The notes under the pieces are model-generated. The model made no database searches. It was given only the letters and a program-made list of their open reading frames with translations, and was not told the DNA's origin. Position numbers and translations under genes: made by a program. Of a stretch of 64,000 bases of DNA, positions 2,877 through 51,977 are shown piece by piece (positions within the stretch are counted from its first letter, which is position 1; every line of letters starts with the position of its first letter). The DNA lies in contig CAVUEQ010000001.1 in assembly GCA_963740635.1 (NCBI GenBank), positions 740,840 to 804,839 on the forward strand. The letters run 5' to 3'. The stretch is from an uncultured bacterium (GTDB taxonomy: Bacteria; Patescibacteriota; Saccharimonadia; UBA4664).

Positions 2877-3584
2877 ATGAGAGTGCTCTGTAGTACAATC
2901 ATGATTATGAATGAGACAAGGTTGCGAGCAGTCCAACTCCGAAAATGGGGTCTCACCTATTCTGAGATTCAATTGCAAATAGGAAAAAATATACCGAAGA
3001 GTACATTGTCGTACTGGTGCCGGGGGGTCAAGCTGTCTGAGCGGCAGCTGAATAGAATATTAGCCCTGGGAAAGGAAAATTTAATCCGTGCTAGATCGGC
3101 GGCAGTCCGAAGCAAGGCCGTCAGTCGAAAGCGTCGTCTGGAGGAAGGGTACAAACAAGCGAAGGGGTACCTTGGTGACGTTAGCCTTCGGGAAGCAAAA
3201 ATTGCATTGGCTATGCTTTACCTTGGTGAGGGTTATAAGTTCCCCGCCAGCAGAGGACTGAAGCTGGGCAGCTCAGATCCCCGGATTGTCAATACTTTCA
3301 TACATTTGCTGCGGTTGTGTTTTGATGTGAGACCAGAGGACCTAAAATGCCTTATCAGTTATAGAGCGGACCAGAACCTGGATGAATTGATGTCCTTCTG
3401 GGCAGCCAAAACCGGCATACCCCGCGATAATTTTTACCAATCCAAGGCTGACCCTAGGACGGTAAATAAACCAACCAAAAATTCAGAATACAAGGGGGTC
3501 GCGGTTGTCTCTTCCAAGGGTGTAACTAACCAGTTGGAGCTTGACCACATTGCAAACGTTTTGCTGGAAGCTATTTCGAGCTAG
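2877..3584 (+). CDS. AT-rich hypothetical protein with an N-terminal HTH. The C-terminal region has a possible LAGLIDADG-like motif (ALAMLYLGEGYK), so it is a candidate homing-endonuclease-like or DNA-binding protein.
   Basis: ORF is about 45% GC in a 65% GC background. The N-terminal segment LRKWGLTYSEIQLQIGKNIPKSTLSYWCRG looks like an HTH. It lies adjacent to a tRNA gene. Confidence 0.5.
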   Translation: MRVLCSTIMIMNETRLRAVQLRKWGLTYSEIQLQIGKNIPKSTLSYWCRGVKLSERQLNRILALGKENLIRARSAAVRSKAVSRKRRLEEGYKQAKGYLGDVSLREAKIALAMLYLGEGYKFPASRGLKLGSSDPRIVNTFIHLLRLCFDVRPEDLKCLISYRADQNLDELMSFWAAKTGIPRDNFYQSKADPRTVNKPTKNSEYKGVAVVSSKGVTNQLELDHIANVLLEAISS

Positions 3585-3839: not shown

Positions 3840-5138
3840 TTATTGCGCCTCAAGCACAAGCGGCATGGCGGGGCGGGGCGCACCGGGACGGATGGCGGGG
3901 CGGGGGGCGCCGGGACGGATGGCCTGGGACAGACGGTCGAGGGCAATCATGGCGGCGGCGGTGCGCGGGGTGGTGTCGGCCGTGCGCGACAGGGCCATGA
4001 CCTCGGCGGCGGACTGGCGGAGCTTGGAGGCCAGGCGGGCCAGCACCATCGGCTCGTCCCAGTTGTACCCCTGGAGGTTTTGGACCCACTCGAAGTACGA
4101 GCCGACCACGCCCCCGGCGTTGGCCAGGATGTCGGGGACGACGGTAACGTGGTGGCGGGCCAGGATGGGGTCGGCGGCGCGGGCGATGGAGCTGTTGCCG
4201 AGCTCGAGGACCACGCGGGCGCGGACGTGGGGGGCGTTGCGTTCCGTGATGGCGTGCTCGACCGCCGCCAGCACCAGGATATCGGCGTCGGCGGCGAGCA
4301 GCTCGGCGTGCGTGGCCGTGCGGCCGCCAGCAGGGGCAACGCGGCCGGTCGCGGCCAGCGCGGCCCGCACCGCGGCGGGGTCGAGGCCGGCGGGGTCCAG
4401 GACGGCGTCGCGCGCGTCGCTCACGCCCACCAGCCGGTAGCCCGCGCGCACCGCGGCCTCGGCGAAGTGCGAGCCGACATTGCCGAAGCCCTCCACGGCG
4501 ATGGTGGGCGTAGCGCCGAGGCCAAGATCCGGCCGGTGTGCCAGCACCTCCTCGAGCACCTCGAACCCGCCGTAGCCCGTGGCCTCGCGGCGGCCCAGGC
4601 TACCGTAGAGTGCGCCCGGCTTGCCCGTAAAGGCGGCCGGCGTGAAGCTGCCGGTGAGCGCGGCGTACTCGTCGACCATCCAGGCCATGGTAGCCTCGCC
4701 GGTGTTCACGTCCGGCGCCGGGATGTCGCGCCACGGCCCGATCAGCGGCTGTACCTGCCGCACATACAGACGGGCTAGCCGCTCGAGCTCGGCCGCGCTG
4801 AGGGTGGCCGGGTCCACGGCCACGGCCCCTTTGGCGCCGCCGAACGGCACGTCGGCCACGGCGCATTTGAGCGTCATCAGCAGCGCCAGGTTCTTCACCT
4901 CTTCCAGATTGGCATCGGCGTGGAACCGGATGCCGCCCTTGAACGGCCCGCGGGCATTTGAGTGCTGCACGCGCCAGGCCCGGAGCCTGAGGATGGTGCC
5001 GTCGTCGCGGGCCAGGGGCAGCGTCATCTCGATAATCCGGTCGGGCTGCGCCAGCGCCTGGATGACTTCGCGGGGGATACGCTGCATGGCGGCAGCCCGT
5101 TTTAGTTCATTCCAGCTGGCTTCATAGATGCTTGGCAT
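3840..5138 (-). CDS. gdh: Glutamate dehydrogenase (Glu/Leu/Phe/Val dehydrogenase family).
   Basis: GGAKGAVAVDP motif and Rossmann GFGNVG segment. 432 aa. The C-terminal tandem peptide repeat AIRPGAPRP x2 comes from a DNA direct repeat at about 3865-3905. Confidence 0.85.
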   Translation of the reverse strand: MPSIYEASWNELKRAAAMQRIPREVIQALAQPDRIIEMTLPLARDDGTILRLRAWRVQHSNARGPFKGGIRFHADANLEEVKNLALLMTLKCAVADVPFGGAKGAVAVDPATLSAAELERLARLYVRQVQPLIGPWRDIPAPDVNTGEATMAWMVDEYAALTGSFTPAAFTGKPGALYGSLGRREATGYGGFEVLEEVLAHRPDLGLGATPTIAVEGFGNVGSHFAEAAVRAGYRLVGVSDARDAVLDPAGLDPAAVRAALAATGRVAPAGGRTATHAELLAADADILVLAAVEHAITERNAPHVRARVVLELGNSSIARAADPILARHHVTVVPDILANAGGVVGSYFEWVQNLQGYNWDEPMVLARLASKLRQSAAEVMALSRTADTTPRTAAAMIALDRLSQAIRPGAPRPAIRPGAPRPAMPLVLEAQ

Positions 5139-5245
5139 TGCCGCTCCGTTTTGAGAATTATTATTGTTCGGTTTGATTATACACCTAATATTTTGACAAT
5201 AGTTATAATTCTTAATAAACTAGCAGTTATTATTGAGGATCTTGG
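5139..5245. promoter_or_regulatory. AT-rich divergent promoter region between gdh (-) and glnA (+).
   Basis: About 30% GC island with TTGACA and TATAAT-like hexamers (ttgacaatagttataattcttaataaac) between divergently oriented starts. Confidence 0.3.
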
Positions 5246-6654
5246 ATGTTTTTGGACATACCCTACGACAAACTCGAGCAAATGAACCTGGCGGCGCGCA
5301 AGCTGACCGACCCGGACGAGGCCAAAGCCAAACACACGGCGTACCTGGAGGGCGAGCCGAAACTGAAGGCGGTGACGGTTTGCTTTTCGGACATCGAAGG
5401 CCGGCTGCACATGCTCGACTACGACAAGAAATTCCTGCTGGCGTCGCTCGACAACCTGACGTTTGACGGCAGTTCGATCCGGGGCTTCAGCGAGCTGCAC
5501 GAGAGCGACCTGCGGCTGCTGCTCGATTGGACCAGTTTCACGCACCTGCCGGCGGACGTGTTTGGGCCGGGAAAGGTGATCGTGTGGGCGAACGTGGCCG
5601 GGCGTGACCTCAAGCCGTACGAGGCCGATTTCCGCGGGCGGCTGCAGGCCTATGCCGCTGAGCTTGCGGCGAAAGACGGCCTGGAGGCTTTCATGGCGCC
5701 GGAGCTGGAGGGGTTTTTGCTGGACGGCGTCGACGCCGAGCAGCATTTTTCCAGCGCCGAGGGCTTTAAGCTGATCTCGAGCGGCGGCTATTTCCACTCC
5801 CTGCCGCTCGACCGGCTGCGGCAGTTCATCGACGCCACGGCCGAGGCGCAGCGGGCGCTCGGGTTCCGCAACGAGAAGGACCACCCCGAGGTGGCGCCGT
5901 CACAGTTCGAAATTAACTTCAGTTACACCGACGTGGTGCGGGCCTGCGACCAGGTGCAGCTGTACAAGCTGATTTGCCGGCAGATCGCCAACCGCCTGGG
6001 CATGACGGCGACCTTTTTGCCCAAGCCCATCCAGGGCATCAACGGCAGCGGCATGCACACCAACTTTTCGCTGGCGCGGGACGGCAAAAACGCCTTCCAC
6101 GACGCCAAGGGCACGGACGGCCTGTCGCCGCTCGGCGTGGGGTTTCATCGAGAAACTGCTCCACCGCGCGCCGGAAATCTGCCTGGTACTGAACTCGAGC
6201 GTGAACTCCTACCGCCGGCTGGACCCGAACTTCGAGGCCCCCAACCAGATTAAGGTGTGCGCCCACGACCGCGGCTCGATGATCCGCATCCCGTTTGGCA
6301 ACGAGCGCACGGCGCGCATCGAGATCCGCTCCGTGGCGCCGGACACCAACCCGTACCTGCTGCTGTTCGCTTTGCTGAAGGTCGGTCTCGAAGACAAGAA
6401 ACCAAGCCGCGGAAAGCGCCGACAAGCGATCGCGGCTGCGGTTTTTGCCGGGTACCATCAAGGACGCAATGCGCCTGTTTAAGGCCAGCGACCTGACGGC
6501 TGGGATTATGGGCGAGGACACGAAGGAGAAGTTCCTGAGCTACAAGCAGGCCTCGGCCGACCGCAACCCGCGCGAGCTGGGCACGACCATTAAAGATTCC
6601 GAGATTATCTACCACCACGAGGTGTGGAACCAGGTACTGTGGAATAAGTTCTAG
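5246..6654 (+). pseudogene. glnA: Glutamine synthetase (GlnA) reading frame interrupted by two +1/-1 frameshifts (near about 6140 and about 6430). This is either a pseudogene or an assembly indel.
   Basis: Frame A (5246..) carries GSGMHTNFSL. Frame B (about 6125..6482) carries FIEKLLHRAPEICLVLNSSVNSYRRL...RGSMIRIP...NPYLL. Frame C (about 6421..6654) carries LPGTIKDAMRLFKASDLT. Together these make a complete GS of about 470 aa. The first shift lies in a G-run (ggcgtgggg). Confidence 0.8.
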
Positions 6655-6692
6655 CTTACGGGCGCCGGTTTTTCGCGAGGAGCGTGATGGCA

Positions 6693-6828
6693 ACTATACT
6701 CCAAAAGGGTATATCTACCATTATCACACAAATGTTGTAGTCTTTTTGGCTTGGGTGAGCCATTATTTCTACCTTACTCGAACACAAATGCCCATTACCG
6801 TCAAAGGTATACTCTTTGGGAGTATAGT
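6693..6828. mobile_element. MITE-like 136-bp AT-rich element with about 22-24 bp terminal inverted repeats (copy 1), upstream of kbl.
   Basis: Left end ACTATACTCCAAAAGGGTATATCTA. Right end GGTATACTCTTTGGGAGTATAGT, which is the reverse complement of the left. The internal motif TGTAGTCTTTTTGGCTTGGGTGAGCCATTA is shared with copy 2. Confidence 0.6.
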
Positions 6829-6905
6829 CGGGCATGCGAGGACTCCGGAAAAAATGCGTGGGTACACCTGGTGCATTTTGGACCGGAAGCGTACACTAGG
6901 TCGTT

Positions 6906-8093
6906 ATGAGCACAAAAGATAATTTCTACAAGCAACTAGCCGAAGCCGAGGCCGGCTTCAAGCCGCCGCGGGTGATTACCAGCGGGCAGGGCGCCTACTT
7001 AAAGATAGACGGCCAGCCGCGGCTGAACTTTTGCTCGAGCCATTACCTGGGGTTCGCGGTGGACGGGCGGCTGAAGCAGGCGGCCAAAGCGGCCGTCGAC
7101 AAGTACGGCATTGGCACCGGCTACCGCACGCTGGCCGGGACGCACGAGTTGCACCTGGAGCTGGAGCGGGCCATCGCGGAGTTTAAGGGCGCCGAGGCGG
7201 CAGTGGTATTTTCGAGCGCCTACGCGGCCAACGCGGCGGCCATCCAGACGATTATCGGCAAGGAAGACATTGTGATTTCGGATGAGCTGAACCACGCCTC
7301 CATCATCGATGCGGTGCGGCTGAGCGGGGTGAAAAATAAGTTCATATACGGCCACGGGGATATGGCGGCGCTGGAGGCGAAGCTTCAAGAGGTGGCAGAG
7401 CTGCGCAAAACGCCCAAGGCCAACGGCGAGCCGCCGCTGGTGCTGATAGTGACCGACGGCGTTTTTTCGATGGACGGCGACCTGGCGCCCCTGCCCCGGA
7501 TCGTGGAGCTCGCCAAGCGCTACGACGCGCTGACCATGGTGGACGACGCCCACGGCGAGGGCGTGCTGGGCCGTGGCGGCCGCGGGATCGTGGACCACTT
7601 TGGCCTGACCGGAGAGGTGGACATCGAGGTGGGGAGCTTGAGCAAGGCGTTTTCGGTGATGGGCGGATTTATTGCGGGCCGGCGCGAGTTGGTTAATTTC
7701 TACAACGCGAGGGCCCGGCAGCGGCTGTTTTCGGTGGCGCTGACCATCCCCGACACGGCGGCGGCCCTGGAGGCGGTGCGGATTTTGCAGGAGTCGCAGG
7801 ATTTGGTGCAGAAATTGTGGGACAACGTGGATTATTTGCGCGAAGGGTTTAAGGAGCTGGGATTTGATATCGGCCACTCCGAGACGCCGATCATCCCGGT
7901 GATGCTGGGCGACGAAAAAACGGCGGTGGAAATGAGCGCCAAGATGTTTGCAGACGGGGTGTTTGCGACGCCGATTGTGTTTCCGATGGTAGCCAAGGGC
8001 AAGGCGCGGATACGGGTGATCGTGTCGGCGAGCTTCAGCCGCGAGGACTGCGATAAGGGGTTGGCGGCGTTCAAGAAGGCGCGGGGGGATTAA
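6906..8093 (+). CDS. kbl: 2-amino-3-ketobutyrate CoA ligase (glycine C-acetyltransferase), class II PLP aminotransferase. Assigned as Kbl rather than BioF because tdh is adjacent.
   Basis: 395 aa. PLP-lysine context GSLSKAF. Convergent with a threonine dehydrogenase-like Zn-ADH gene. Confidence 0.8.
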   Translation: MSTKDNFYKQLAEAEAGFKPPRVITSGQGAYLKIDGQPRLNFCSSHYLGFAVDGRLKQAAKAAVDKYGIGTGYRTLAGTHELHLELERAIAEFKGAEAAVVFSSAYAANAAAIQTIIGKEDIVISDELNHASIIDAVRLSGVKNKFIYGHGDMAALEAKLQEVAELRKTPKANGEPPLVLIVTDGVFSMDGDLAPLPRIVELAKRYDALTMVDDAHGEGVLGRGGRGIVDHFGLTGEVDIEVGSLSKAFSVMGGFIAGRRELVNFYNARARQRLFSVALTIPDTAAALEAVRILQESQDLVQKLWDNVDYLREGFKELGFDIGHSETPIIPVMLGDEKTAVEMSAKMFADGVFATPIVFPMVAKGKARIRVIVSASFSREDCDKGLAAFKKARGD

Positions 8094-8170
8094 CCTTTCC
8101 TTTTAATGGGGGTGGGGGCGTTTGGCGTGTTCGATTGCACGAGGTTTTTCTGCGAGTTGGCACGGTGCGC

Positions 8171-8306
8171 ACTATACTCCAAAAGAGTATATCTATCTTT
8201 CCGGCGAATATATTGTGTAGTTTTTGCTTAAGTGAAGCCATAAACGCGATGTTGCAATATTACATGTTTAGAGCAATGTCAAAACTATACCCTTTTGGAG
8301 TATAGT
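8171..8306. mobile_element. MITE-like 136-bp element copy 2, between kbl and tdh. Same TIRs and same length as copy 1.
   Basis: Left ACTATACTCCAAAAGAGTATATCTA. Right AAAACTATACCCTTTTGGAGTATAGTTG, the reverse complement of the left. Internal TGTAGTTTTTGCTTAAGTGAAGCCATAA. Confidence 0.6.
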
Positions 8307-8346
8307 TGTGTGTATAAGTTTCCGCGGGGAGTGGCGGCGTCCGGTT

Positions 8347-9546
8347 TTAACCGTTAACCTTGAAGATGACTTTGGGGTGGGCGTTGAGGGCTTGCTCGAA
8401 ATTGAGCTGGTCGTACTGCGCGAGCGGTAGGATGGTCCCCTCCCCTTTTTTGAGGATGACGTCCCAGATTTTGCCCTGGATGCCGTTGGATTTGTCCGAC
8501 AGAATGCGCTGGGAAATCTGCCAGGTGCCGAAAATTTGGCGGCCGATAATGCCGTGGACGGTGAGGCCTTTGACGATAAAGCGCGAGAATTTGGGAACGG
8601 TGAAGTCGCCGTCCTTGAGGCCGAAGAGGATGACCTGGCCGCCGCGGCGGGTGGCTTCGAGGGCGTTGTTGAGGCTCGAGGGCGGGCCGGCCATTTCCAT
8701 GGCGATGTCGACGCCCTTGCCGTAGGTGAGCTCGTTGATGCGGCCGACCACTTCGGGGTCGTGGTCGTAGTCGTGGGCCTTTTCCTTGCGCTCGATCTGG
8801 ATGGTCTCGTGGGCGCCGCACGCCTTAGCCATGGCCAGGTTGTCAGGGTTAACGTCGACGGCGATGACCTTGGCCGCGCCGAAATTTTTGAGCAGCAAGA
8901 TGGCGAACAGGCCAATTGGGCCGCAGCCCATCACGGCCACGCGCTGGCCGCGGACCTCGACCTTGGTGGAGGCGTGGACGGCGTTGCCGAACGGGTCCAT
9001 GATGGCGGCGATTTCGGGGCGGATGCGGGACTCGTCGATCGGCCAGAGGTTTTTGGCCGGGATTTTGACGTATTCGGCAAAGATGCCGTTGATGGAAATG
9101 CCGAGAATGCTCTCGTTCATGCAGACGTTGCCCTCACCGATGCGGCACTGGTAGCATTTGCCGCAGGTGACATGCGAGTCGCCGGACACCAAGCTGCCGA
9201 CCTCGATTTTGGCGTTGTTGTTCGGGTCTTCGTCGTAATAGAGGGTGCGAACCATGGAGCCGGCCGCCACGACCTCGCCGACGAATTCGTGGCCGAGCAC
9301 GCGCAAAGTCTGGCCCTGGGCGGCCAAGGAGTCGTGGATGAGGTCGTGGAAGGTGTTGCGGTAGTAGATGCCGCGGTCGGTGCCGCAAACGCCGGCGTAG
9401 CGGATTTTGAGAATGACGGCAGTGGCGTCGGCGGGGTCGGCCGCCTCGTTGAGGGCGGGCCGCTCGATGTCTCGGAGCACAAAGCCCCGGGATTTCTCCC
9501 AGGAATCGGTGTGAGTATCAAATGTGAGAGCTTTTACTGTGGCCAT
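8347..9546 (-). CDS. tdh: Zn-dependent alcohol dehydrogenase family, L-threonine 3-dehydrogenase-like.
   Basis: GHEFVGEVV zinc-ADH motif, cysteine-rich structural zinc loop (CGKCYQCRIGEGNVC), Rossmann GCGPIG. Neighbour of kbl. Confidence 0.75.
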   Translation of the reverse strand: MATVKALTFDTHTDSWEKSRGFVLRDIERPALNEAADPADATAVILKIRYAGVCGTDRGIYYRNTFHDLIHDSLAAQGQTLRVLGHEFVGEVVAAGSMVRTLYYDEDPNNNAKIEVGSLVSGDSHVTCGKCYQCRIGEGNVCMNESILGISINGIFAEYVKIPAKNLWPIDESRIRPEIAAIMDPFGNAVHASTKVEVRGQRVAVMGCGPIGLFAILLLKNFGAAKVIAVDVNPDNLAMAKACGAHETIQIERKEKAHDYDHDPEVVGRINELTYGKGVDIAMEMAGPPSSLNNALEATRRGGQVILFGLKDGDFTVPKFSRFIVKGLTVHGIIGRQIFGTWQISQRILSDKSNGIQGKIWDVILKKGEGTILPLAQYDQLNFEQALNAHPKVIFKVNG

Positions 9547-10531: not shown

Positions 10532-11733
10532 GCCTTGGGCCCGATGCCAAATAGTTCGCGGGGAGTGATTTTGCGGGTGTACTGCAGGCTGCCGTAGCGG
10601 AAACTTGTAACGGCAATGGCGAGGGCGGCCGCGGCGCTGGCCATTACCACAATAATGCCGAGGGTGGCCTCGAAGGGGCTGAGGTTGCCGACGGCGTTGC
10701 GGATCAGCAAGGTGAGGGGGGCAAAGGTCGGGAAGAAGGTGAAGAATTTGACGATGGGTTGGTCCGGGGTGGTGACGATGGCGGCCGCGGCATACAGCGG
10801 GACAAGCATCGACAGCATGCCCATGCCGAAGAACCGGTTGGCTTCCTTGGCGGTGGGCATGGCGGCGCCGATAGCCACCAGTATGCCGGTAAACACCAGG
10901 AATCCGCCGGCGAAGACCAGTGCGCCGACCAACATTTGCCAAGGATCAAATACGATGCTCCGGAGATCGATGGTTTGGCGGTATTTGGCATAGGCGAGGA
11001 GGATCGGCACTAGGATGGCGAGGATTTGGACGAAACCGACGCCGATCATGGCCACGATTTTGCCGATTATGAGGGAGGTCGAAGACACAGTGGTGAGCAT
11101 GACCTCGATCACCCGGTTTTCTTTTTCTTTGGTGGTGGAGGATAACATTTGGTTGCCGAGTAACACCATGACCACAAACAATAGCACCGCGAAGGCGCCG
11201 GGAGCGATGATGCGGGAGACCGTGGCATTGACCTGGCGCCCGTCGGCGTAGGCGGTGAGGCTGGCGCTGGCCTGGCCCTTAACGATGGCAATTTTTTCCG
11301 GCGAGCCAATGCCAGCGACCACGCCCGAGTCGAGGAGTTGGGTGGCAGCGTTGGTGTACTGGCCGTCTTTGATGATGCCGACGTCGCGCGCGTAAACCTC
11401 GATAGAATGTTTCACGGGGTCCGACGGGTAGTAGAAGAAGGCGTCGACTTGCCCGGCTTTGACGGCCTCAATGCCGGCCTGCCGGGTGCCGGGGATCTGA
11501 GCTTTGGCGGCGCGCAACACGCCCGGCGGGATGAGCTTTGACTGGTCGAGTACCATGAGACTGAACTGCTCCTGACCAGCGCTGAGCTTGGCGCTGGCGG
11601 ATTTGCTCGAGTAAAACTCCAGAGCGAAGATGCCGGCCACAAGTAGCGGGATGGCCAGGGTGGTCACCCAGAAAGACTTGCGCCGGACGGTGCGGATAAA
11701 CTCAAAGCTGACCACGGTCCGCAGGTTATGCAT
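10528..11733 (-). CDS. ABC-2 type transporter permease (NatB-like). The start MHNLRTV overlaps the upstream ATPase stop (ATGCATAA).
   Basis: N-terminal TM, large extracytoplasmic loop, then 5 C-terminal TMs. Translationally coupled to the ABC ATPase. Confidence 0.75.
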   Translation of the reverse strand: MHNLRTVVSFEFIRTVRRKSFWVTTLAIPLLVAGIFALEFYSSKSASAKLSAGQEQFSLMVLDQSKLIPPGVLRAAKAQIPGTRQAGIEAVKAGQVDAFFYYPSDPVKHSIEVYARDVGIIKDGQYTNAATQLLDSGVVAGIGSPEKIAIVKGQASASLTAYADGRQVNATVSRIIAPGAFAVLLFVVMVLLGNQMLSSTTKEKENRVIEVMLTTVSSTSLIIGKIVAMIGVGFVQILAILVPILLAYAKYRQTIDLRSIVFDPWQMLVGALVFAGGFLVFTGILVAIGAAMPTAKEANRFFGMGMLSMLVPLYAAAAIVTTPDQPIVKFFTFFPTFAPLTLLIRNAVGNLSPFEATLGIIVVMASAAAALAIAVTSFRYGSLQYTRKITPRELFGIGPKA

Positions 11734-12688
11734 GGGCGGTCTCCGGTTGGCCGGCTTTGGTGCCGGCGTTTTCCGAATAGATGGCCACAAAAATATCGTC
11801 GAGTGAGGCCTGCTGCTCTTCGAACTGGGTAACGGACAGGCCACGGTGGCCGGCCAGCGCCTCAAAAACCTGCTGGGTGGTCACGCCGTCGCGCATGGAC
11901 AGAGTGGCGGTGCCGTGGTCCTGGGCGGCCACTTCGTAGAGGGCGGTGTGCGCCGGCAGTTTCCCACCAAAGCGCAGGGCGATGATTTTGGAGCCAAACT
12001 GGTTGCGGATATCGTTGACGGTGCCGTAGAGCCGGCGCTTGCCGTCCTTGAGCAGCGCCACCCGGTCGCACAAGCGCTCCACTTCCTCCATTTGGTGAGT
12101 CACCAGCACAGTCGTGGTGCCCTGCTTCGACAACTCCTCGAGCATGTCCACGAGCAGCCGGCGGTTGACGGGGTCGAAGCCTTTGGTGGGCTCGTCGAGG
12201 ATGAGCAGCTCCGGATTGTTCATGATGGTGACGCCGAGCTGGATTTTCTGCTGCTCGCCGCCGGAGAGGCGGTCCATGCGCGCGCCGGCCTTGTCGGGCA
12301 GGCCCACGCGCTCCAGATATTCAGCCGACCATTTGGCGACGGCCGCCGGGTTCATGCCCTTGAGGCGGCCGAAGTAAGTCATGCAGCTAGACACGGTTTC
12401 TTTTTGGTACAGCCCGCGCTCTTCGGGCAGGTATCCAAGGATGCCGGCCATTTTGGTGGTGTATTTCCGGCCGTTTACGAGCAGGGTGCCGCGGGTAGGT
12501 TGGTAAATGCCGAGTAATGCCCGCAGGGTGGTTGTCTTGCCGGAGCCATTTGAGCCCAAAAAACCGAAGGTTTCGCCCGGCTTCACGTCAAACGACAAGT
12601 CCTCAATGACGGTCTTGTCGCCAAAGCGCATCTGGAAATTGCGGATATCGATCGGGAGGGGATGCGGCATATCGGATTTATCATACAC
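11726..12688 (-). CDS. ABC transporter ATP-binding protein.
   Basis: Walker A GSNGSGKTTT, signature LSGGEQQK, Walker B LILDEPT. Confidence 0.9.
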   Translation of the reverse strand: MYDKSDMPHPLPIDIRNFQMRFGDKTVIEDLSFDVKPGETFGFLGSNGSGKTTTLRALLGIYQPTRGTLLVNGRKYTTKMAGILGYLPEERGLYQKETVSSCMTYFGRLKGMNPAAVAKWSAEYLERVGLPDKAGARMDRLSGGEQQKIQLGVTIMNNPELLILDEPTKGFDPVNRRLLVDMLEELSKQGTTTVLVTHQMEEVERLCDRVALLKDGKRRLYGTVNDIRNQFGSKIIALRFGGKLPAHTALYEVAAQDHGTATLSMRDGVTTQQVFEALAGHRGLSVTQFEEQQASLDDIFVAIYSENAGTKAGQPETAHA

Positions 12689-12699
12689 CCGCGTGCCGA

Positions 12700-13014
12700 T
12701 TATGCGGCGGCCGATTGCTGATGTGAGTTAGGACTGGCCATGTGACCCCGCAACAGACGCTGAGTCCGCAGTGACCTGCGATCCACCCGGTCCAGACGCT
12801 GACTTTCGCCCCGTGCATCACCCTCAAGCATTTCGCGCAATTGGCGGATGTCTGTCTTGAGCTCCGTCTTCATGTCCGCCATTTCGGTCCGCAATTCTGT
12901 CCGTAGAGCGGTCATTTCTGACCGCAATGAACTTTCGGATGCACCAACCGCGCCCTCGACGACGTCTGCTACGATTCCTCGGATTTGGTTGAGGTCATTA
13001 GGCGTAAGCGACAT
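12700..13014 (-). CDS. Hypothetical coiled-coil protein, immediately upstream of the ABC operon.
   Basis: 104 aa with heptad-like charged repeats (TALRTELRTEMADMKTELKTDIRQLREMLEG). No homology recognised. Confidence 0.4.
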   Translation of the reverse strand: MSLTPNDLNQIRGIVADVVEGAVGASESSLRSEMTALRTELRTEMADMKTELKTDIRQLREMLEGDARGESQRLDRVDRRSLRTQRLLRGHMASPNSHQQSAAA

Positions 13015-13128
13015 GCTAGTTCCTGTTACTTATCCAGTGTAAACTCCACCTCGGGTACATTATAGCGAACAAAATGCGAACAGACAAAATTAACGCCTCG
13101 CCTTGAAGCGTTTGGGAGGACCTCCAGG

Positions 13129-13368
13129 CTAGTGAATCGCGTGTAGCAAACGCAATATGCCGATGGTCTCATTGCCGGCAAGGTGCCTCGCGATTGTGAT
13201 GTCAGTCAAACCCTGGGGATCCTGTCCGATGAGATAGACTGGCGCGTAGCCCTTTTTGGCGGCCGTGGGGCTGATCCAGAATCGCGCGAATACATTGTCT
13301 CGTCCTCGAAAAAGCGAGCGAAACAGGCTTACTTTGGCTTTGTTGGTCGCCTCGTGCTCCCCCACCAA
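13129..13368 (-). CDS. Short hypothetical ORF, possibly a gene remnant, within a lower-GC islet.
   Basis: 79-aa ORF abutting the Fic gene. No recognisable domain. Confidence 0.25.
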   Translation of the reverse strand: MVGEHEATNKAKVSLFRSLFRGRDNVFARFWISPTAAKKGYAPVYLIGQDPQGLTDITIARHLAGNETIGILRLLHAIH

Positions 13369-13372
13369 ACTC

Positions 13373-14470
13373 TTATCCTAGCCGCCGCTTGATCTCTGCC
13401 AGGGTTTGACGCTGGTCAGTCTGCAGGCGACGGATTTCTTTGGCCCGACCGATCATGGTGAGTTCATAGAGTTGGTATCCGCCGGGGGTATGCGAGGCCA
13501 CCTCAAGCAGGCCTTCACGGGTCCAGTGGCGAAGAGTCGGGACGGTCTCCTCGGTATCCTTAGCCAATTCGCCAATCTTGAGGAGTTTGGCGGCACCGGC
13601 ACCGGGGCTTGCAAGAGATGGCCCGCCGACTGATTCAAGGTAAATGTCGAGAGAGCGATCGATGGAAGCATAGATGCAATCATAATACCCGTCCATCGGG
13701 CCGCCGGTCTGGGCGGTTTCAAGTGAAGTAATATAGGTGCTCCGATCCTCTGGACGGAGGATGGCAGCGGGGTAGCCTGTCTGCATGAGGAGTAGATTCA
13801 TGAGGAGTCTGGCGGTTCGCCCGTTACCGTCGACAAACGGGTGGATACTGACTAGCCTGAAGTGAGCATCAGCCGCGATCTTTGCGGGATGATCAGAGTT
13901 CTCTGATTTCAGCCATGTGGCAAATGCAGCCATGAGGTCTGGTACCTTTAGGTAGTTTGGCATTACGGCCCGGCTACCGGCGATTCGCACCGGGACGCTT
14001 CTGTAGCGCCCGGCGTTTACGTCAGCAGTGCCGCCTAGGATTCTCTCATGTAACGAAAGTATGAGGTCCTCTGTGATATCTGTGCGATCCCCACCGACAA
14101 ATTGCTCGATATAGTCAAATGCCCGAGCATGGCCAGCAGCTTCCATAACTTCTTTGAGCGTTTTGCCCTCAATGCCAAGCCCCTTGTCTACCACCAGTGC
14201 CGTTTCCTGGCGCGTTAGGGTGTTGCCCTCGATGGCGTTCGAAGTGTAGGTCAGCTCAACACGAAACCACTCCCGAAGATTATTGATCAGCTCGGGGGCG
14301 AGGGGCTGAAACTGATCCAGCGATTGTTTCTTGCGACTGATGTTGGCTAGAATTGTATACATAGTATGCAGTGTAACGTCACGCTTTACGGTTGTCAAGA
14401 TGCCCACATACTCCGTGAAGTTTGCGTCAATGTCTGCCTTGCCCGACGAACGAACCGTCGGAGGTCCCAC
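13373..14470 (-). CDS. Fic/Doc family protein (class II Fic with intramolecular inhibitory motif) fused to a C-terminal MerR-like HTH.
   Basis: Canonical Fic motif HPFVDGNGRTARLL. Inhibitory [S/T]xxxE[G/N] motif TSNAIEGN near the N-terminus. C-terminal LKIGELAKDTEETVPTLRHWTREGLL...LAEIKRRL resembles a MerR HTH. Locus is about 55% GC. Confidence 0.8.
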   Translation of the reverse strand: MGPPTVRSSGKADIDANFTEYVGILTTVKRDVTLHTMYTILANISRKKQSLDQFQPLAPELINNLREWFRVELTYTSNAIEGNTLTRQETALVVDKGLGIEGKTLKEVMEAAGHARAFDYIEQFVGGDRTDITEDLILSLHERILGGTADVNAGRYRSVPVRIAGSRAVMPNYLKVPDLMAAFATWLKSENSDHPAKIAADAHFRLVSIHPFVDGNGRTARLLMNLLLMQTGYPAAILRPEDRSTYITSLETAQTGGPMDGYYDCIYASIDRSLDIYLESVGGPSLASPGAGAAKLLKIGELAKDTEETVPTLRHWTREGLLEVASHTPGGYQLYELTMIGRAKEIRRLQTDQRQTLAEIKRRLG

Positions 14471-14496
14471 TCGTTAGGGCTTAAGCGAGGAATTCG

Positions 14497-14570
14497 AGCT
14501 ATAGAACCCAAAGGGGATTCGAACCCCTGGTTTTTCCTGTGTCAAAGCCATTAACCCCAAATAACTCTCG
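14497..14570 (-). other. tRNA-like fragment (T-arm plus 3' acceptor strand), not a complete canonical tRNA.
   Basis: Minus-strand sequence contains AGGGGTTCGAATCCCCT (perfect T-stem-loop) followed by TTGGGTTC, but no complementary 5' acceptor strand could be found. Confidence 0.35.
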
Positions 14571-14622
14571 CTCCTTCGAAAGACTGAGGGCCATTTTTGG
14601 CTTGTGGTAGCGAATGTCTAAA

Positions 14623-14699
14623 TGGTGGAGCTGGAGGGATTCGAACCCTCGACCTCTGCAATGCGAATGCAGCGCTCTAGCCAGCTGAGCTACAGCCCC
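14623..14699 (-). tRNA. tRNA-Ala (anticodon CGC), CCA encoded.
   Basis: Reverse complement GGGGCTGTAGCTCAGCTGGCTAGAGCGCTGCATTCGCATTGCAGAGGTCGAGGGTTCGAATCCCTCCAGCTCCACCA. Anticodon loop TT-CGC-AT. G3:U70. Confidence 0.85.
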
Positions 14700-14736
14700 A
14701 CGGACTGATACATTGTGCCTGTTTGAGCGGTGGGCG

Positions 14737-16578
<1,842 letters not shown>

Positions 16579-16624
16579 TTTTGGCTTATGCTTGGCAAAT
16601 AAATTGGGCGGGTCTGTTCAGGAT

Positions 16625-17914
16625 TTAGCCGAGCCAGGCGAGTTCGGCGTCGCCGATGCGGATGGTGTCGCCGTCCTGGGCGCCTTGGCGCATCAGCTCG
16701 CGGCGGACGCCGGTTTTGGCCAGGATGTCGCGGAGGCGGCGGACGGCGTCGTCTTGTTCGAAGTTGGTGCGGCGGGCGAAGCCTTCGATGCGCTCGCCCG
16801 TCACGCGCCAGACGCCGGCGCCTTCCGGGGCCACGCGCCAGAAATCAGGGAGGTCAACGGCTTCGATCACGGGCACGGCGGCCTCGGCGAGCTCGGCCTC
16901 GCGCTTGGCGCGGGCGGTTTTAACGAGCTTGGCGGCGGCGCGCAGGACATCGGCCAGGCCCTGGTGGGCGACGGCGGAGATGGTGAAGATAGGGGTTTTG
17001 CCGGCGGCACGCCCCGGCGCACCTTCGGCTTTTTTGACGGCGGACACGGTCGCCTTGAGCGCTTTGGCGTCGACGGTGTCAGCCTTGGTAATGACAATGA
17101 GCTGCGGCTTTGCGGAGAGGTCCACCTGGTACTGCGCCAGCTCGGCCTGGATGGTGCGGTAATCGGCGGCGGGGTCGGGCGAGCCGGCGTCCACCAGGTG
17201 CAGGAGCACGGCGGTGCGCTCGATGTGGCGCAGGAAGTCGTCGCCGAGACCTTTGCCCTCACTGGCGCCTTCGATGAGGCCGGGAATGTCGGCCACCAGG
17301 AAGCCGAAGTCGTCAATGTCGACCACGCCCAGGTTGGGCACGAGGGTGGTGAACGGATAATCGGCGATCTCGGGCTTGGCGGAGGATATCACCGACAGCA
17401 GCGTGGATTTGCCGGCGTTGGGCAGGCCCACCAGGCCGACGTCGGCGACCATCTTGAGCTCGAGGCGCAGGCCGTGGGTTTCGCCTGGTTCGCCGAGCTC
17501 AGCGTTGCGCGGCGATTGGCGGGTGCTGGACTTGAAGTGTGCGTTGCCGAAGCCGCCGCGGCCGCCGCGCGCGATCACGGCCTCGTCGGCGGGGCCGGTG
17601 AGGTCGGCGAGCAGCTTTTCGTCTTCCCAGAGCTGCGTACCCTGCGGCACTTTCACCACCGCGTCGGCGCCGTGTTTGCCGTGCATGCGGTTGCCGCCGC
17701 CGGGCGCGCCGGCCTCGGCCCGGATGGTTTTGGCGTTGCGGTAGGCGGCGAGGGTGTTGAGGTTGTGGTCCACGCGCACAATCACGTCGCCGCCGCGGCC
17801 GCCGTCGCCGCCGTCGGGGCCGCCCAGGGCCCGGTATTTCTCATGCCGAAAACTAGAGCGGCCATCGCCGCCCTTCCCCGCGCGTACTTCAATTGTGGCT
17901 GTGTCTACAAACAT
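16625..17914 (-). CDS. obg: GTPase Obg (ObgE/CgtA).
   Basis: Gly-rich Obg fold (GGDGGRGGDVIV). G1 GLPNAGKSTLL. C-terminal OCT/TGS-like domain. Confidence 0.9.
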   Translation of the reverse strand: MFVDTATIEVRAGKGGDGRSSFRHEKYRALGGPDGGDGGRGGDVIVRVDHNLNTLAAYRNAKTIRAEAGAPGGGNRMHGKHGADAVVKVPQGTQLWEDEKLLADLTGPADEAVIARGGRGGFGNAHFKSSTRQSPRNAELGEPGETHGLRLELKMVADVGLVGLPNAGKSTLLSVISSAKPEIADYPFTTLVPNLGVVDIDDFGFLVADIPGLIEGASEGKGLGDDFLRHIERTAVLLHLVDAGSPDPAADYRTIQAELAQYQVDLSAKPQLIVITKADTVDAKALKATVSAVKKAEGAPGRAAGKTPIFTISAVAHQGLADVLRAAAKLVKTARAKREAELAEAAVPVIEAVDLPDFWRVAPEGAGVWRVTGERIEGFARRTNFEQDDAVRRLRDILAKTGVRRELMRQGAQDGDTIRIGDAELAWLG

Positions 17915-18006
17915 TACTACCGCTTAGTATACCAACTCTTGCTTTTTAATACTAGTTATGTTAATATATTCATGTCTCGCACACCTACAATTCCCAGGGG
18001 GACCCA

Positions 18007-18363
18007 ATGACTGAGACCGCAATACCAGCCGGCTACGTCAGCCTCGAGCAACTGCTCGAAGAACTTCGGACCTTCGGGTTCGAACGGCAGATGGTCATGG
18101 AGCTGGTGACCGGACCGGCCACGCCGTACTACCGTAATGGCTTCGGACCGACGCACGACGAAGCGCTGTTTGCGATCCTCAGGGCCGCCAAGGTTCTGAA
18201 CGACCGCTTCGGCCCTGCTCGCGTCCTGAAGGTTTTCTACCACCGGAAAGGCTCAACCACCGGCCTGACGATGGCGGACCTGGTGAAGAGCCGGGAATTC
18301 GCGACGTTGACCGATCACATCGATATGACCCGCGAGGGCATCGGCATGTACGCTCGGGAGTGA
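18007..18363 (+). CDS. Hypothetical protein.
   Basis: 118-aa ORF with an SD (agggggac) 6 nt upstream of ATG. No domain recognised. Confidence 0.4.
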   Translation: MTETAIPAGYVSLEQLLEELRTFGFERQMVMELVTGPATPYYRNGFGPTHDEALFAILRAAKVLNDRFGPARVLKVFYHRKGSTTGLTMADLVKSREFATLTDHIDMTREGIGMYARE

Positions 18364-50205: not shown

Positions 50206-51079
50206 GACGCTTCCTCTTTTCGGATGGGATGGATCTGTCGGTAAGGCTGAGCACCTTCTTGCGCTCGGCCGTCATGTAAGGTTCGGCACCAAAAATGGGC
50301 CTAGGTAAGACCAACCTGGGTCGCGGCAGCAGCCGCAATTTTGGGCGGAGGTGCCGGCCAACTCGTGGATCGCTGGCGGCCAGCTTCACGGCTTGAAGCA
50401 TACACCACGCGAGGAGAACTCGCCGGTTCGATTTGCACGGCCGCACACGAGAGCGGCGATGGGTGAAATCAGTGCGCAGGTCGTACCAATGGTCCATGAT
50501 CACGCCGGCGGCCGTGATGTGGCCGAACGCTCGCACGAACCGGCCGTACGCCTGCTGGTCTGAGCGTTCTTCCGCGGTGGCGCATAGGCCGGCGAGACTG
50601 GCGGTCAGCCGGCTCTCGCGCCCCAGTACCCGGCCGTACATGAACACACTGCGCTTCCTGGCCTTGACGGGCGCCAGATCGGCGACGGACAGGGCCATGT
50701 CGACAAGTTCGTCCCGAGCGTCTTGGCCGAGCTCGCGCAGGGCATTGTTGCACAGAGCCATTAGCGGCGGCAGGTCTGGGTGGACCCATTCCGGGAACTC
50801 GCAGGCGAGCGGATCCTGGGCCTCCAATAGCTCTTGGTAGCATCTTCGCGCCTCCGCTTCCTGGCCAGGCGGATGCTCGTCGAGCAGCTCGTCGAGGCGG
50901 TAGGCCAGCGCCCAGATCCGCATCCAGCGCTCCTGGGTTTCGCTGCTGGGGTGAAGGCCGCACCAGCGCGCAAAGTAGTAGGCGTAAATCGCGATAGCGT
51001 ACCACCCGGGGTGGGAACGCCATACCGCCTCATACGGCAGCCCGGCGTCGCCTTTGAAATCGTGGTATTTCGCCCGCAT
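50147..51079 (-). CDS. Hypothetical protein, possibly with an isoprenoid-synthase (class I terpenoid synthase) fold. The C-terminal about 100 aa of the track ORF is probably out of frame or overlapping.
   Basis: Asp-rich motif RLDELLDE. Second motif GVIMDHWYDLRTD resembles the phytoene/squalene synthase NxxxD region. Confidence 0.35.
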   Translation of the reverse strand: MRAKYHDFKGDAGLPYEAVWRSHPGWYAIAIYAYYFARWCGLHPSSETQERWMRIWALAYRLDELLDEHPPGQEAEARRCYQELLEAQDPLACEFPEWVHPDLPPLMALCNNALRELGQDARDELVDMALSVADLAPVKARKRSVFMYGRVLGRESRLTASLAGLCATAEERSDQQAYGRFVRAFGHITAAGVIMDHWYDLRTDFTHRRSRVRPCKSNRRVLLAWCMLQAVKLAASDPRVGRHLRPKLRLLPRPRLVLPRPIFGAEPYMTAERKKVLSLTDRSIPSEKRKRHVPTTNGSPVQTATPAPDA

Positions 51080-51354
51080 GGCGGTTACCTCCTCTCAACA
51101 GGTCTCGTATCAAACAACTTCGATTAGAAATTTCGACCAGGCTACGATACAACTAAGTGCGAGGAATAGCAATCTACTCGCGGTCCGAATGTGCTGTTCT
51201 TTGTATGGGTGATTTGTGTGTTCCTGAATTGTTCGGTAAATGTTTGCTTATATACGAAGATGTACTAAAATGTAAGTACAAATGATTCGCTTTCCGAACT
51301 GTCACCGTATGGTGTGCGTGTCTGGGACATCCAGACTAGGAGGCGGATCGCTTG

Positions 51355-51972
51355 TTATTTAAAACGCCAAATATTTTCGATTCGTTTTTTAACTATTCGT
51401 TGATACTCATCATCGCCGGAATTGACAGTATGATAGATCGATCCGGAGAGCATGTCCGCTAGCTGGATCAGTACGTTCTCTTTTGAATCTACGAACCTTA
51501 GAGATTTGATTATTCTGTCATCTCCCTGATTGAGCTGAGCCCTCAAGTACGATCCAGCTGCTCGCTTATACGTTCTGTCGCCTCGTCCGTCGAGCTTAAT
51601 CTTGGCGTCGATAATTTTGCCTTTTGCATCTTTAAGCAACAACTTTATGGCATAGTTATAAAACGAAGCGCGGTTATGCTTAAGTTCCTCACTGTTGATG
51701 ATTGACTTATCAATTACCAGAGCTCGGACTCGGAAATTATTCCCGCTTACCCTTTTGAGAAATGCTTGTTTTGTTTGGGCGTTTGCTCTGTTGAAATGAA
51801 ATTCGTGGGAGTCCGGGCGCTTCAGCTCCCGTCTGAGTAATTTAATATCTACCGCAGTTTTCTCGGCAGCTAGATCATCCTCAAAGATAACCGCGACTAG
51901 TACGAAGTATTTTGTGGAGCCCCTGTTGATTTTAAAGCCAGCGTCGCCAGATTCATCGATAAAGACCAACAT
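51355..51972 (-). CDS. DUF3800 family protein, AT-rich, start 5 nt after the pcrA stop.
   Basis: MLVFIDESGD ... IQLADMLSGSIY are DUF3800 hallmarks. Followed by an about 270-bp AT-rich non-coding stretch. Confidence 0.7.
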   Translation of the reverse strand: MLVFIDESGDAGFKINRGSTKYFVLVAVIFEDDLAAEKTAVDIKLLRRELKRPDSHEFHFNRANAQTKQAFLKRVSGNNFRVRALVIDKSIINSEELKHNRASFYNYAIKLLLKDAKGKIIDAKIKLDGRGDRTYKRAAGSYLRAQLNQGDDRIIKSLRFVDSKENVLIQLADMLSGSIYHTVNSGDDEYQRIVKKRIENIWRFK

Positions 51973-51977
51973 CTGGC

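Follow-up and report, generated by a model that had tools for sequence, protein, structure and literature searches.

The stretch of DNA analysed here, 64,000 nt of a high-GC, Saccharimonadia-like Patescibacteria genome that we refer to throughout as the window, carries a short segment of low GC content immediately 3′ of a tRNA-Ala(CGC) gene. This islet (12700-14622, or 12700-14699 when the tRNA is counted) holds three open reading frames (ORFs), all on the (−) strand: a gene for a protein that joins a Fic domain to a C-terminal helix-turn-helix (HTH) of MerR type, hereafter Fic-MerR, the 5′ stub of a gene for an AEP-TOTE primase fused to a superfamily 2 (SF2) helicase, and a gene for a short coiled-coil protein (Table 1). 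An earlier reading made from the letters alone (the sequence-only reading) had proposed a decayed integrative islet 3′ of a tRNA. This proposal was borne out by a break in synteny at the tRNA, an element at the orthologous tRNA of a relative, homologues that also adjoin tRNAs, foreign composition at third codon positions and the truncation of the primase-helicase gene. Among the relatives compared we found no identical synteny with uniform GC, and the Fic motifs are not degenerate; these were the two outcomes that the sequence-only reading had named as counting against it. The insertion point lies at the tRNA, the composition of the islet is foreign, the primase-helicase gene was later deleted beyond about 75 codons, and the Fic-MerR gene is intact and constrained. 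We consider it very probable that the islet is the end of a mobile element that inserted at the tRNA and then decayed, and the fuller account given below, in which insertion and decay are joined by a functional model, is in our judgement likely as a whole.

Composition and position of the islet

Without the tRNA the islet has a GC content of 54.2%, and 54.5% with it, against a window mean of 62.0%. It is the lowest-GC 1.9 kb in the 64 kb; 0.2% of segments of equal size are equally low, and all of them overlap the islet. Its tetranucleotide distance from the window falls within the top 1.6%, and the GC and k-mer scan suggested by the sequence-only reading thus came out in its favour. The figures it had given, about 55% GC for the islet and 65% for the flanks, were right for the former and too high for the latter, as the immediate flanks have 60.4% and 62.8%. 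Third codon positions give the sharpest contrast between islet and host. GC content at these positions (GC3) is 0.60 in the Fic gene, 0.59 in the coiled-coil ORF and 0.675 in the 79-aa AEP stub, against 0.78-0.86 in the surrounding ABC, Obg, LysM, dehydrogenase and glyoxalase genes. By composition, the coiled-coil ORF belongs to the islet. Fic orthologues in five other genomes have a GC3 of 0.59-0.66 regardless of local GC, which indicates that the window copy retains the composition of its family and has not drifted towards that of its host. By GC, tetranucleotides and GC3 alike, the islet shows the atypical composition of a genomic island.

ARAGORN and Rfam both recovered the tRNA-Ala(CGC) that had been reported beside the islet. 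We compared the locus with those of the two closest genomes, Patescibacteria UBA6017 (DIZX01000002.1, locus L002) and RYN_427 (L003), whose Obg proteins are 79% and 77% identical to that of the window. All three have LysM/CHAP, Obg, ABC exporter and tRNA-Ala(CGC) in the same order, and no genes beyond the tRNA are shared with UBA6017 or RYN_427. By blastn and alignment, DNA similarity to both genomes ends at the tRNA CCA, at window position 14623/14620. The synteny check that had been proposed therefore found the islet genes absent after the tRNA in both relatives, the pattern of an insertion at a tRNA 3′ end. Directly after the orthologous tRNA, UBA6017 has genes for a large serine recombinase, an ImmA/IrrE peptidase and an HTH protein (L002 13159-20457), followed by an N6/N4 DNA methylase, Replic_Relax and a TraD/VirD4-like ATPase. 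This locus is an integrative element at the orthologous site and is probably transferable. Its presence at the same tRNA indicates that the 3′ flank is a variable insertion site, and identifies tRNA-Ala(CGC) as a hot spot for insertions in the lineage. The recombinase ORF of L002 was also seen to extend into the tRNA gene.

The sequence-only reading had described a tRNA-like fragment with a T-arm beside the tRNA. Between the tRNA and the Fic gene a perfect T-arm, AGGGGTTCGAATCCCCT, is indeed present, inside a degenerate tRNA-like remnant; its sequence, however, is unrelated to tRNA-Ala, differing from the tRNA-Ala 3′ end of which it is not a copy. The T-arm motif occurs three times in the 64 kb, the other two being real tRNAs, against a first-order Markov expectation of 0.27. 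Rfam gave weak tRNA-like signals on the remnant, its fold energy is no better than that of shuffled sequence (z = -0.25), and a search of 1.5 Mb of fetched loci and of IMG/VR viral contigs yielded nothing that matched it. A permuted-tmRNA match of the remnant (E = 0.013) was attributed to the adjacent tRNA gene and discarded. From locus to locus there is no conservation of the stretch that separates the tRNA from the Fic promoter.

A separate observation concerns the window's other tRNA gene, tRNA-Ala(GGC) at 2754-2830 (−). It adjoins a 235-aa ORF at 2877-3584 (+) that has no Pfam match, a GC content of 0.477 and a GC3 of 0.52, against about 0.84 for the host. Here, too, a small piece of foreign DNA may have been inserted at a tRNA.

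Table 1. Coordinates of the islet's features and of the adjoining tRNA gene, numbered on the window
Feature	Position	Strand	Remarks
Fic ORF	13373-14470	(−)	365 aa; Pfam Fic 1.9e-22, MerR_1 9.4e-11
Fic-MerR gene (probable extent)	13373-14362	(−)	329 aa, start ATG 14362
Fic motif HPFVDGNGRTAR	13843-13808	(−)	residues 174-185, read directly
Inhibitory motif TSNAIEGN	14245-14222	(−)	Glu45; read directly
MerR-type HTH	~13579-13382	(−)	C-terminal
Fic promoter TTGACA-17 nt-TACACT	14370-14398	(−)	promoter scan 10/12
Imperfect dyad, arms AAGCGTGAC and GTTACACTG	14369-14386	(−)	spans spacer and −10 box
AEP-TOTE primase/SF2 helicase 5′ stub	13129-13368	(−)	79-aa ORF, ~75 codons of gene
tRNA-Ala(CGC)	14623-14699	(−)	ARAGORN; Rfam tRNA 70.7 bits
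Degenerate tRNA-like remnant	14504-14592	(−)	ARAGORN, relaxed threshold only (-ps80, 80% of normal)
Perfect T-arm AGGGGTTCGAATCCCCT	14512-14528	(−)	inside tRNA-like remnant
Coiled-coil ORF	12700-13014	(−)	104 aa; GC3 0.59
Promoter-like site TTGTCT-17 nt-TATAAT	13059-13087	(−)	upstream of coiled-coil ORF; scan 10/12
Terminator-like hairpin with T-rich tail	13092-13112	(−)	directly after AEP stub; scan, 8 pairs; consensus match only

The Fic-MerR protein and its promoter

Close homologues of Fic-MerR, and a database protein (P0001) that is 100% identical to it, are 325-335 aa long. Together with a conserved promoter that lies inside the longer ORF, these lengths suggest that the 365-aa ORF is too long and that the true start is probably ATG 14362. 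Pfam, direct reading and homologues all agreed with the earlier description of a Fic-HTH fusion with the canonical motif HPFVDGNGRTAR. Among the best 120 of thousands of Fic-MerR matches, every one combines Fic with MerR, 113 have HPFx(D/E)GNGRxxR and 119 have SNAIEGN. The window's protein fits HxFx(D/E)GNGRxxR, the active-site pattern of Fic/Fido AMP-transferases. The class II inhibitory motif that had been claimed for its N terminus is likewise present: S41-N-A-I-E45-G46 fits (S/T)xxxE(G/N), lies on the same chain and stands at the end of a predicted helix (residues 23-44) in an AlphaFold2 (AF2) model. In class II Fic proteins the Glu of this motif obstructs binding of the ATP gamma-phosphate, resulting in auto-inhibition, and a change of E to G activates the enzyme. 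An inhibitory helix at the N terminus of the same polypeptide is reportedly what Engel and co-workers in 2012 took to define the class.

The AF2 model, built from 49 homologues, has a mean pLDDT of 90.2. Foldseek returned FICD as its best match (7b7z, 2.8e-15), ahead of BT_2513 and the Fic protein of C. difficile; other FICD entries aligned at about 35% identity with a root mean square deviation (rmsd) of 2.0 Å over 246 columns. A phmmer search of the PDB also placed FICD/HYPE closest (1.1e-37), with TSNAIEGN on TVAIEGN and the catalytic loops aligned, HPFVDGNGRTAR with FICD HPFIDGNGRTSR. In fold and motifs Fic-MerR is alike to FICD/HYPE, BT_2513 (3CUC) and C. difficile Fic (4X2E), and in both FICD and Fic-MerR the inhibitory helix is N-terminal on the same polypeptide. 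Unlike FICD, which acts on BiP, Fic-MerR has no TPR and no membrane anchor, ends in a MerR-type HTH and is the product of a bacterial mobile-element gene. Pairwise ratios of nonsynonymous to synonymous substitution (dN/dS) against five orthologues were 0.07-0.10, which indicates an intact gene under purifying selection.

The C-terminal MerR-like HTH that had been noted earlier was identified by Pfam as a winged HTH of the MerR type (MerR_1 9.4e-11, MerR 2.3e-7), and its PDB matches are CadR and MerR-family N-terminal domains (~2e-5). True MerR proteins have an N-terminal HTH, a coiled-coil dimerisation helix and a C-terminal effector domain, a layout that Fic-MerR does not follow, its HTH being C-terminal. 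The protein also matches the PADLOC profiles PDC-S04 (2.2e-28) and SoFic (2.2e-26). SoFic, in the work of Millman and co-workers in 2022, is said to be a single-gene anti-phage defence. According to one report (PMC12249575), SoFic-type Fic proteins defend by abortive infection via AMPylation. Fic-MerR is like SoFic in being a Fic-domain protein with a DNA-binding-type C-terminal domain and in occurring in mobile or defence-type contexts. However, its similarity to Shewanella SoFic is weak (phmmer 6.6e-6 over 54 residues; Foldseek 16% identity, rmsd 8.6 Å), and its HTH is of the MerR type whereas SoFic has a winged helix. With FicT/FicA and Phd/Doc it has in common a Fido-fold enzyme under an inhibitory element, a mobile-element gene and probable autoregulation from a promoter operator. 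It differs from them in that a single chain comprises enzyme, inhibitor (the Glu45 helix) and DNA-binding module, with no separate antitoxin gene. A literature search for Fic-MerR in Patescibacteria found nothing specific.

The Fic start lies 7 nt after the −10 box of a promoter with a 17-nt spacer (Table 1). This implies a leaderless or near-leaderless mRNA, and the Fic mRNA is probably leaderless. The closest clade of Fic genes comprises six contexts at 77-88% identity (the window and loci L028, L029, L030, L163 and L164, with L028 and L029 each 85% identical to the window's protein), and the promoter block is the only upstream sequence conserved among the window, L028, L029 and L030. Across the spacer and the −10 box runs an imperfect dyad. 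At the same position L028 has a dyad of CATGAAGTGTTAC and GTTACACTTCATG, whose 13-nt arms match at 92%, and both L030 (AAGTGTGAC and GTCACACTT) and L036 (AACCGTAAC and GTTACGGTT) have 9-nt arms that match at 100%. For 18 Fic-MerR genes (43-100% identity) we scored the best palindrome lying no more than 60 nt from the start; the scores exceeded those of a distal control (p = 0.005) and also those of 51 Fic genes without MerR (p = 0.0006). An automatic palindrome scan of the window gave 6/9 for a neighbouring 18-mer. The position and conservation of the dyad suggest that it is a candidate operator to which the protein's own HTH may bind, with self-repression of the sort known from toxin-antitoxin operons as the predicted result, and a role of Fic-MerR as a putative regulator is supported by this conserved promoter dyad. 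The promoter and dyad are a new observation, and the dyad offers a ready binding-site prediction.

The truncated gene and the proposed parent element

The sequence-only reading had called the 79-aa ORF an orphan, which did not hold. It matches Pfam AEP-TOTE (PF22548) at 2.7e-11 over profile positions 2-82 of 230 and is the stub of a longer gene. It was compared with a protein of about 735 aa in L029, in which an AEP primase domain (3.6e-57) is fused to a ResIII/DEAD SF2 helicase. The two are 69% identical over the first 87 aa, and the match breaks at window position 13144, just before the AIDLD catalytic (DxD) motif. Measured against this homologue, the window has lost 2 kb or more, which is direct evidence of decay. 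L029, L030, L163 and L164 have an intact or longer pair of Fic and AEP-helicase genes, the second starting 8 nt after the Fic stop in L029 and 5-8 nt after it across the pairs. A search of viral contigs for close relatives of the AEP-helicase yielded none. TOTE conflict systems take their name from TPR, OB, TBP and Effector (Aravind et al. 2022, as cited in PMC12458937). The stub and its full-length relatives resemble them in matching the AEP-TOTE primase domain PF22548, and differ in having an SF2 helicase fused to the AEP domain and Fic-MerR as the partner gene. Membership of TOTE was rejected, as the TPR-OB (cold-shock) and TBP genes are missing; within the short flanks covered, the L029 gene has Fic-MerR and a PLD nuclease next to it.

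As the sequence-only reading had stated, no integrase remains. A tblastn search with the large serine recombinases of relatives found none in the window, and none of the ORFs with host-like codon bias scanned over 0-26 kb is a recombinase. A recombinase with flanking attachment (att) repeats is thus not present, which fits a decayed remnant and not an active element. Related Fic genes are found in fuller settings. The L028 copy of Fic-MerR has tRNA-Leu on one side and a large serine recombinase in convergent orientation on the other, and that of L114 adjoins Replic_Relax and a TraG-like ATPase. Homology, at 30-43% identity, links the coupling ATPases encoded by L002, L028 and L114. Proviruses predicted in IMG/VR (L119-L121 and L123) have Fic-MerR flanked by a phage replication module and, on the other side, by a large serine recombinase with DUF2924, and in L115 it sits in a region rich in toxin-antitoxin genes. 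These contexts indicate that serine-recombinase elements frequently carry Fic-MerR, in many cases close to an end of the element.

Some of these loci have further content of note. The L028 element (11330-18041) also encodes a SMODS nucleotidyltransferase with SLATT, a CBASS-like pair, and a TrwB/TraG-like ATPase. Fic-MerR of L119-L123 (~5800-9200; 57% identity) stands beside a small conserved ORF, in the usual position of lysogeny or immunity genes, and in L120 a LexA gene follows.

Within the closest clade, the Fic gene follows a co-oriented tRNA, at a distance of 140-260 nt on its 3′ side, in three of the six contexts. The tRNAs differ, being tRNA-Ala(CGC) in the window, tRNA-Leu(CAG) in L028 and, after tRNA-Phe, tRNA-Gly(GCC) in L029. 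On the assumption of about one tRNA per 20-30 kb we estimated chance adjacency at ~0.5% per gene, so three in six is far beyond chance. The direct repeats of the tRNA 3′ end that the sequence-only reading had suggested looking for at the borders of the islet did not materialise: no repeat of the tRNA-Ala 3′ end was found near the distal edge. The sole other match, tRNA-Ala(GGC), was considered as an att repeat and rejected, being a full gene in backbone shared with locus L112. Large serine recombinases need just a two-base crossover, and if one was used here no repeat of the tRNA end is expected. Nor were att repeats found in the elements of L028, L002 and L029 within the DNA available.

The islet resembles known tRNA-adjacent islands in its place 3′ of a tRNA, its foreign composition, the variability of the locus among relatives and the loss of a recombinase. 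It is unlike the usual ones in lacking a direct repeat of the tRNA 3′ end and in being 1.9 kb only. Usual tRNA islands carry tyrosine integrases, whereas the elements related to the islet carry large serine recombinases. On the distal side, L112, a locus with homologues of the ABC genes, has the ABC pair, tRNA-Ala(GGC) and glyoxalase in common with the window, which suggests that this side is backbone.

A functional model weighed against other readings

We propose that an element inserted immediately 3′ of tRNA-Ala(CGC) and that, as in relatives, this parent element would have carried a large serine recombinase, often accompanied by Replic_Relax and a TraG/VirD4-like ATPase. Fic-MerR would be a self-contained cassette with a sigma-70-like promoter and a probably leaderless mRNA. 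Its Fic domain would dimerise the protein, allowing the C-terminal HTH to bind the dyad over the −10 box and repress its own transcription, and the FICD-like class II Fic domain would be held inactive by Glu45 of the SNAIEGN helix. Release by some trigger, for example infection or loss of the element, may then lead to AMPylation of a cellular target and growth arrest, with addiction or abortive-infection defence as the outcome. Such a role would explain why the Fic gene outlived the rest of the element. The model draws on what is known of the family, namely inhibition by the class II Glu, the FicT and Doc toxins and defence by SoFic. That Fic-MerR is an autoregulated, auto-inhibited FICD-like AMP-transferase serving as an addiction or abortive-infection module is a tentative proposal, to which we give slightly less than an even chance.

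Several observations weigh against this account. With regard to the element, the window retains neither att sites nor a recombinase nor any further element gene, so the type of the element is taken from relatives. An empty site, with tRNA-Ala(CGC) joined to the ABC operon, was not recovered by way of ABC ATPase/permease homologues (72-78% identity), which occupy other contexts, and the distal boundary near 12700 is therefore drawn from composition (GC3) alone. Adjacency to a tRNA is seen in only three of the six closest contexts, L030, L163 and L164 having no tRNA near Fic, and members of the family at 40-60% identity are rarely next to one. In L117 and L118 (5181-8574) a Fic-MerR of 60% identity lies between archease and RtcB, a housekeeping context in L117; archease and the RNA ligase RtcB normally work together, and this placement hints at a link to RNA repair. 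With regard to regulation, the protein ends two residues after position 65 of 69 in the MerR profile, and neither a dimerisation helix nor an effector domain follows. In the window itself the dyad is weak (a hand count gives 6/9 for the arms and 7/13 when they are extended), and, although it lies between the −35 and −10 boxes, the spacer is 17 bp and not the 19-20 bp of MerR promoters. As for the enzyme, FICD-like proteins are also able to take AMP off again, and de-AMPylation could be what Fic-MerR does at rest; its toxicity, target and trigger are putative.

Other readings of the locus were considered. If Fic-MerR and the PrimPol-helicase formed a two-gene conflict module directed against phages or plasmids, moving as cargo among hot spots, the copy in the window would be broken, with the Fic half alone still working, and the part played by the integrative element would be incidental. 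The tight pairing in L029, L030, L163 and L164 and the stub in the window agree with this, as do the matches of the AEP domain to the Pfam TOTE primase and to PADLOC CRISPR-associated PrimPol (4.4e-52), of the helicase part to PbeA and type IV restriction helicases, and of the Fic part to the two PADLOC profiles named above; a PLD nuclease gene also adjoins the pair in L029. Yet the majority of Fic-MerR genes (55-60% identity) lack a neighbouring AEP-helicase, L028 carries Fic alone, the TPR-OB and TBP genes that define TOTE were not seen beside the L029 pair, and viral contigs yielded no close relatives. AEP-helicase fusions, moreover, also serve plasmids and integrative elements as ordinary replication proteins. 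We regard the module as an unlikely explanation of the window, albeit one with more to recommend it than the remaining two.

One of these holds that the segment is ordinary host DNA, with a vertically inherited Fic-MerR regulator, a low GC content due to constraint or mutation bias and a tRNA nearby by coincidence. The family is indeed very large in Patescibacteria, with thousands of matches and one architecture throughout the top 120, the gene is under purifying selection and some members sit among housekeeping genes. Against this, the gene is absent at the locus in both of the closest genomes, its GC3 of 0.60 is far outside the host range (~0.84), it is attached to a truncated primase-helicase gene, and its close homologues occur in unrelated contexts beside three different tRNAs, which is very unlikely to arise by chance in three of six. 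Ordinary host DNA is accordingly a very improbable reading. The other takes the islet for an assembly chimera in a metagenome-assembled genome; the window does come from a metagenomic assembly (NCBI/ENA), and the composition shifts abruptly. However, an independent Logan assembly contig, L001 (ERR11718635), is 100% identical to the window over 12185-14680, both junctions included, a match that runs from the ABC gene through the entire islet and takes in 58 nt of tRNA sequence. This makes a chimeric join unlikely, and we give it next to no weight.

Each component of a decayed mobile-element end that retains a Fic-MerR gene is of a known kind: tRNA-adjacent islets, DNA-binding class II Fic proteins, mobile Fido toxins and AEP-helicase fusions. 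Taken alone, the islet is a common type of feature, and the Fic-MerR architecture is common to thousands of relatives. The combination of a FICD-like Fic domain, a MerR-type HTH, a promoter dyad, a PrimPol-helicase and serine-recombinase elements in Patescibacteria appears to be undescribed in the literature searched. Patescibacteria have small genomes and are said to have few classical defence or toxin-antitoxin systems. Fic-MerR is a testable candidate for growth control or infection resistance in these bacteria and their mobile elements. A bolder generalisation would make Fic-MerR a widespread uncharacterised Patescibacteria family in which toxin, inhibitor and autorepressor form one polypeptide, and whose closest clade forms a two-gene defence or addiction module with a PrimPol-SF2 helicase, carried 3′ of tRNAs on serine-recombinase elements that do not duplicate the tRNA end; in this full form we think it improbable.

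The remaining islet gene, the coiled-coil ORF, had no match at the level of 90% clusters except itself, and a full HMMER scan gave short coiled-coil repeat matches only, to generic coiled-coil and CCDC90-like families. A promoter-like site precedes it, and a terminator-like hairpin follows the AEP stub (Table 1).

Elsewhere in the window, the lowest-GC kilobase is at 51000-52000 (45.5%), and an Rfam DUF3800-IX RNA (RF02968) was found at 51284-51353 (+) with 66.7 bits against a gathering score of 36.8. Tetranucleotide composition is most atypical at 1-1000, and a 762-aa ORF at 350-2638 (−) has host-like codon bias and no Pfam match. From 3840 to 8093 the window encodes a glutamate dehydrogenase, a glutamine-synthetase-like protein, a class I/II aminotransferase and then a zinc-type alcohol dehydrogenase, which is more nitrogen metabolism than would be expected of a Patescibacteria genome.

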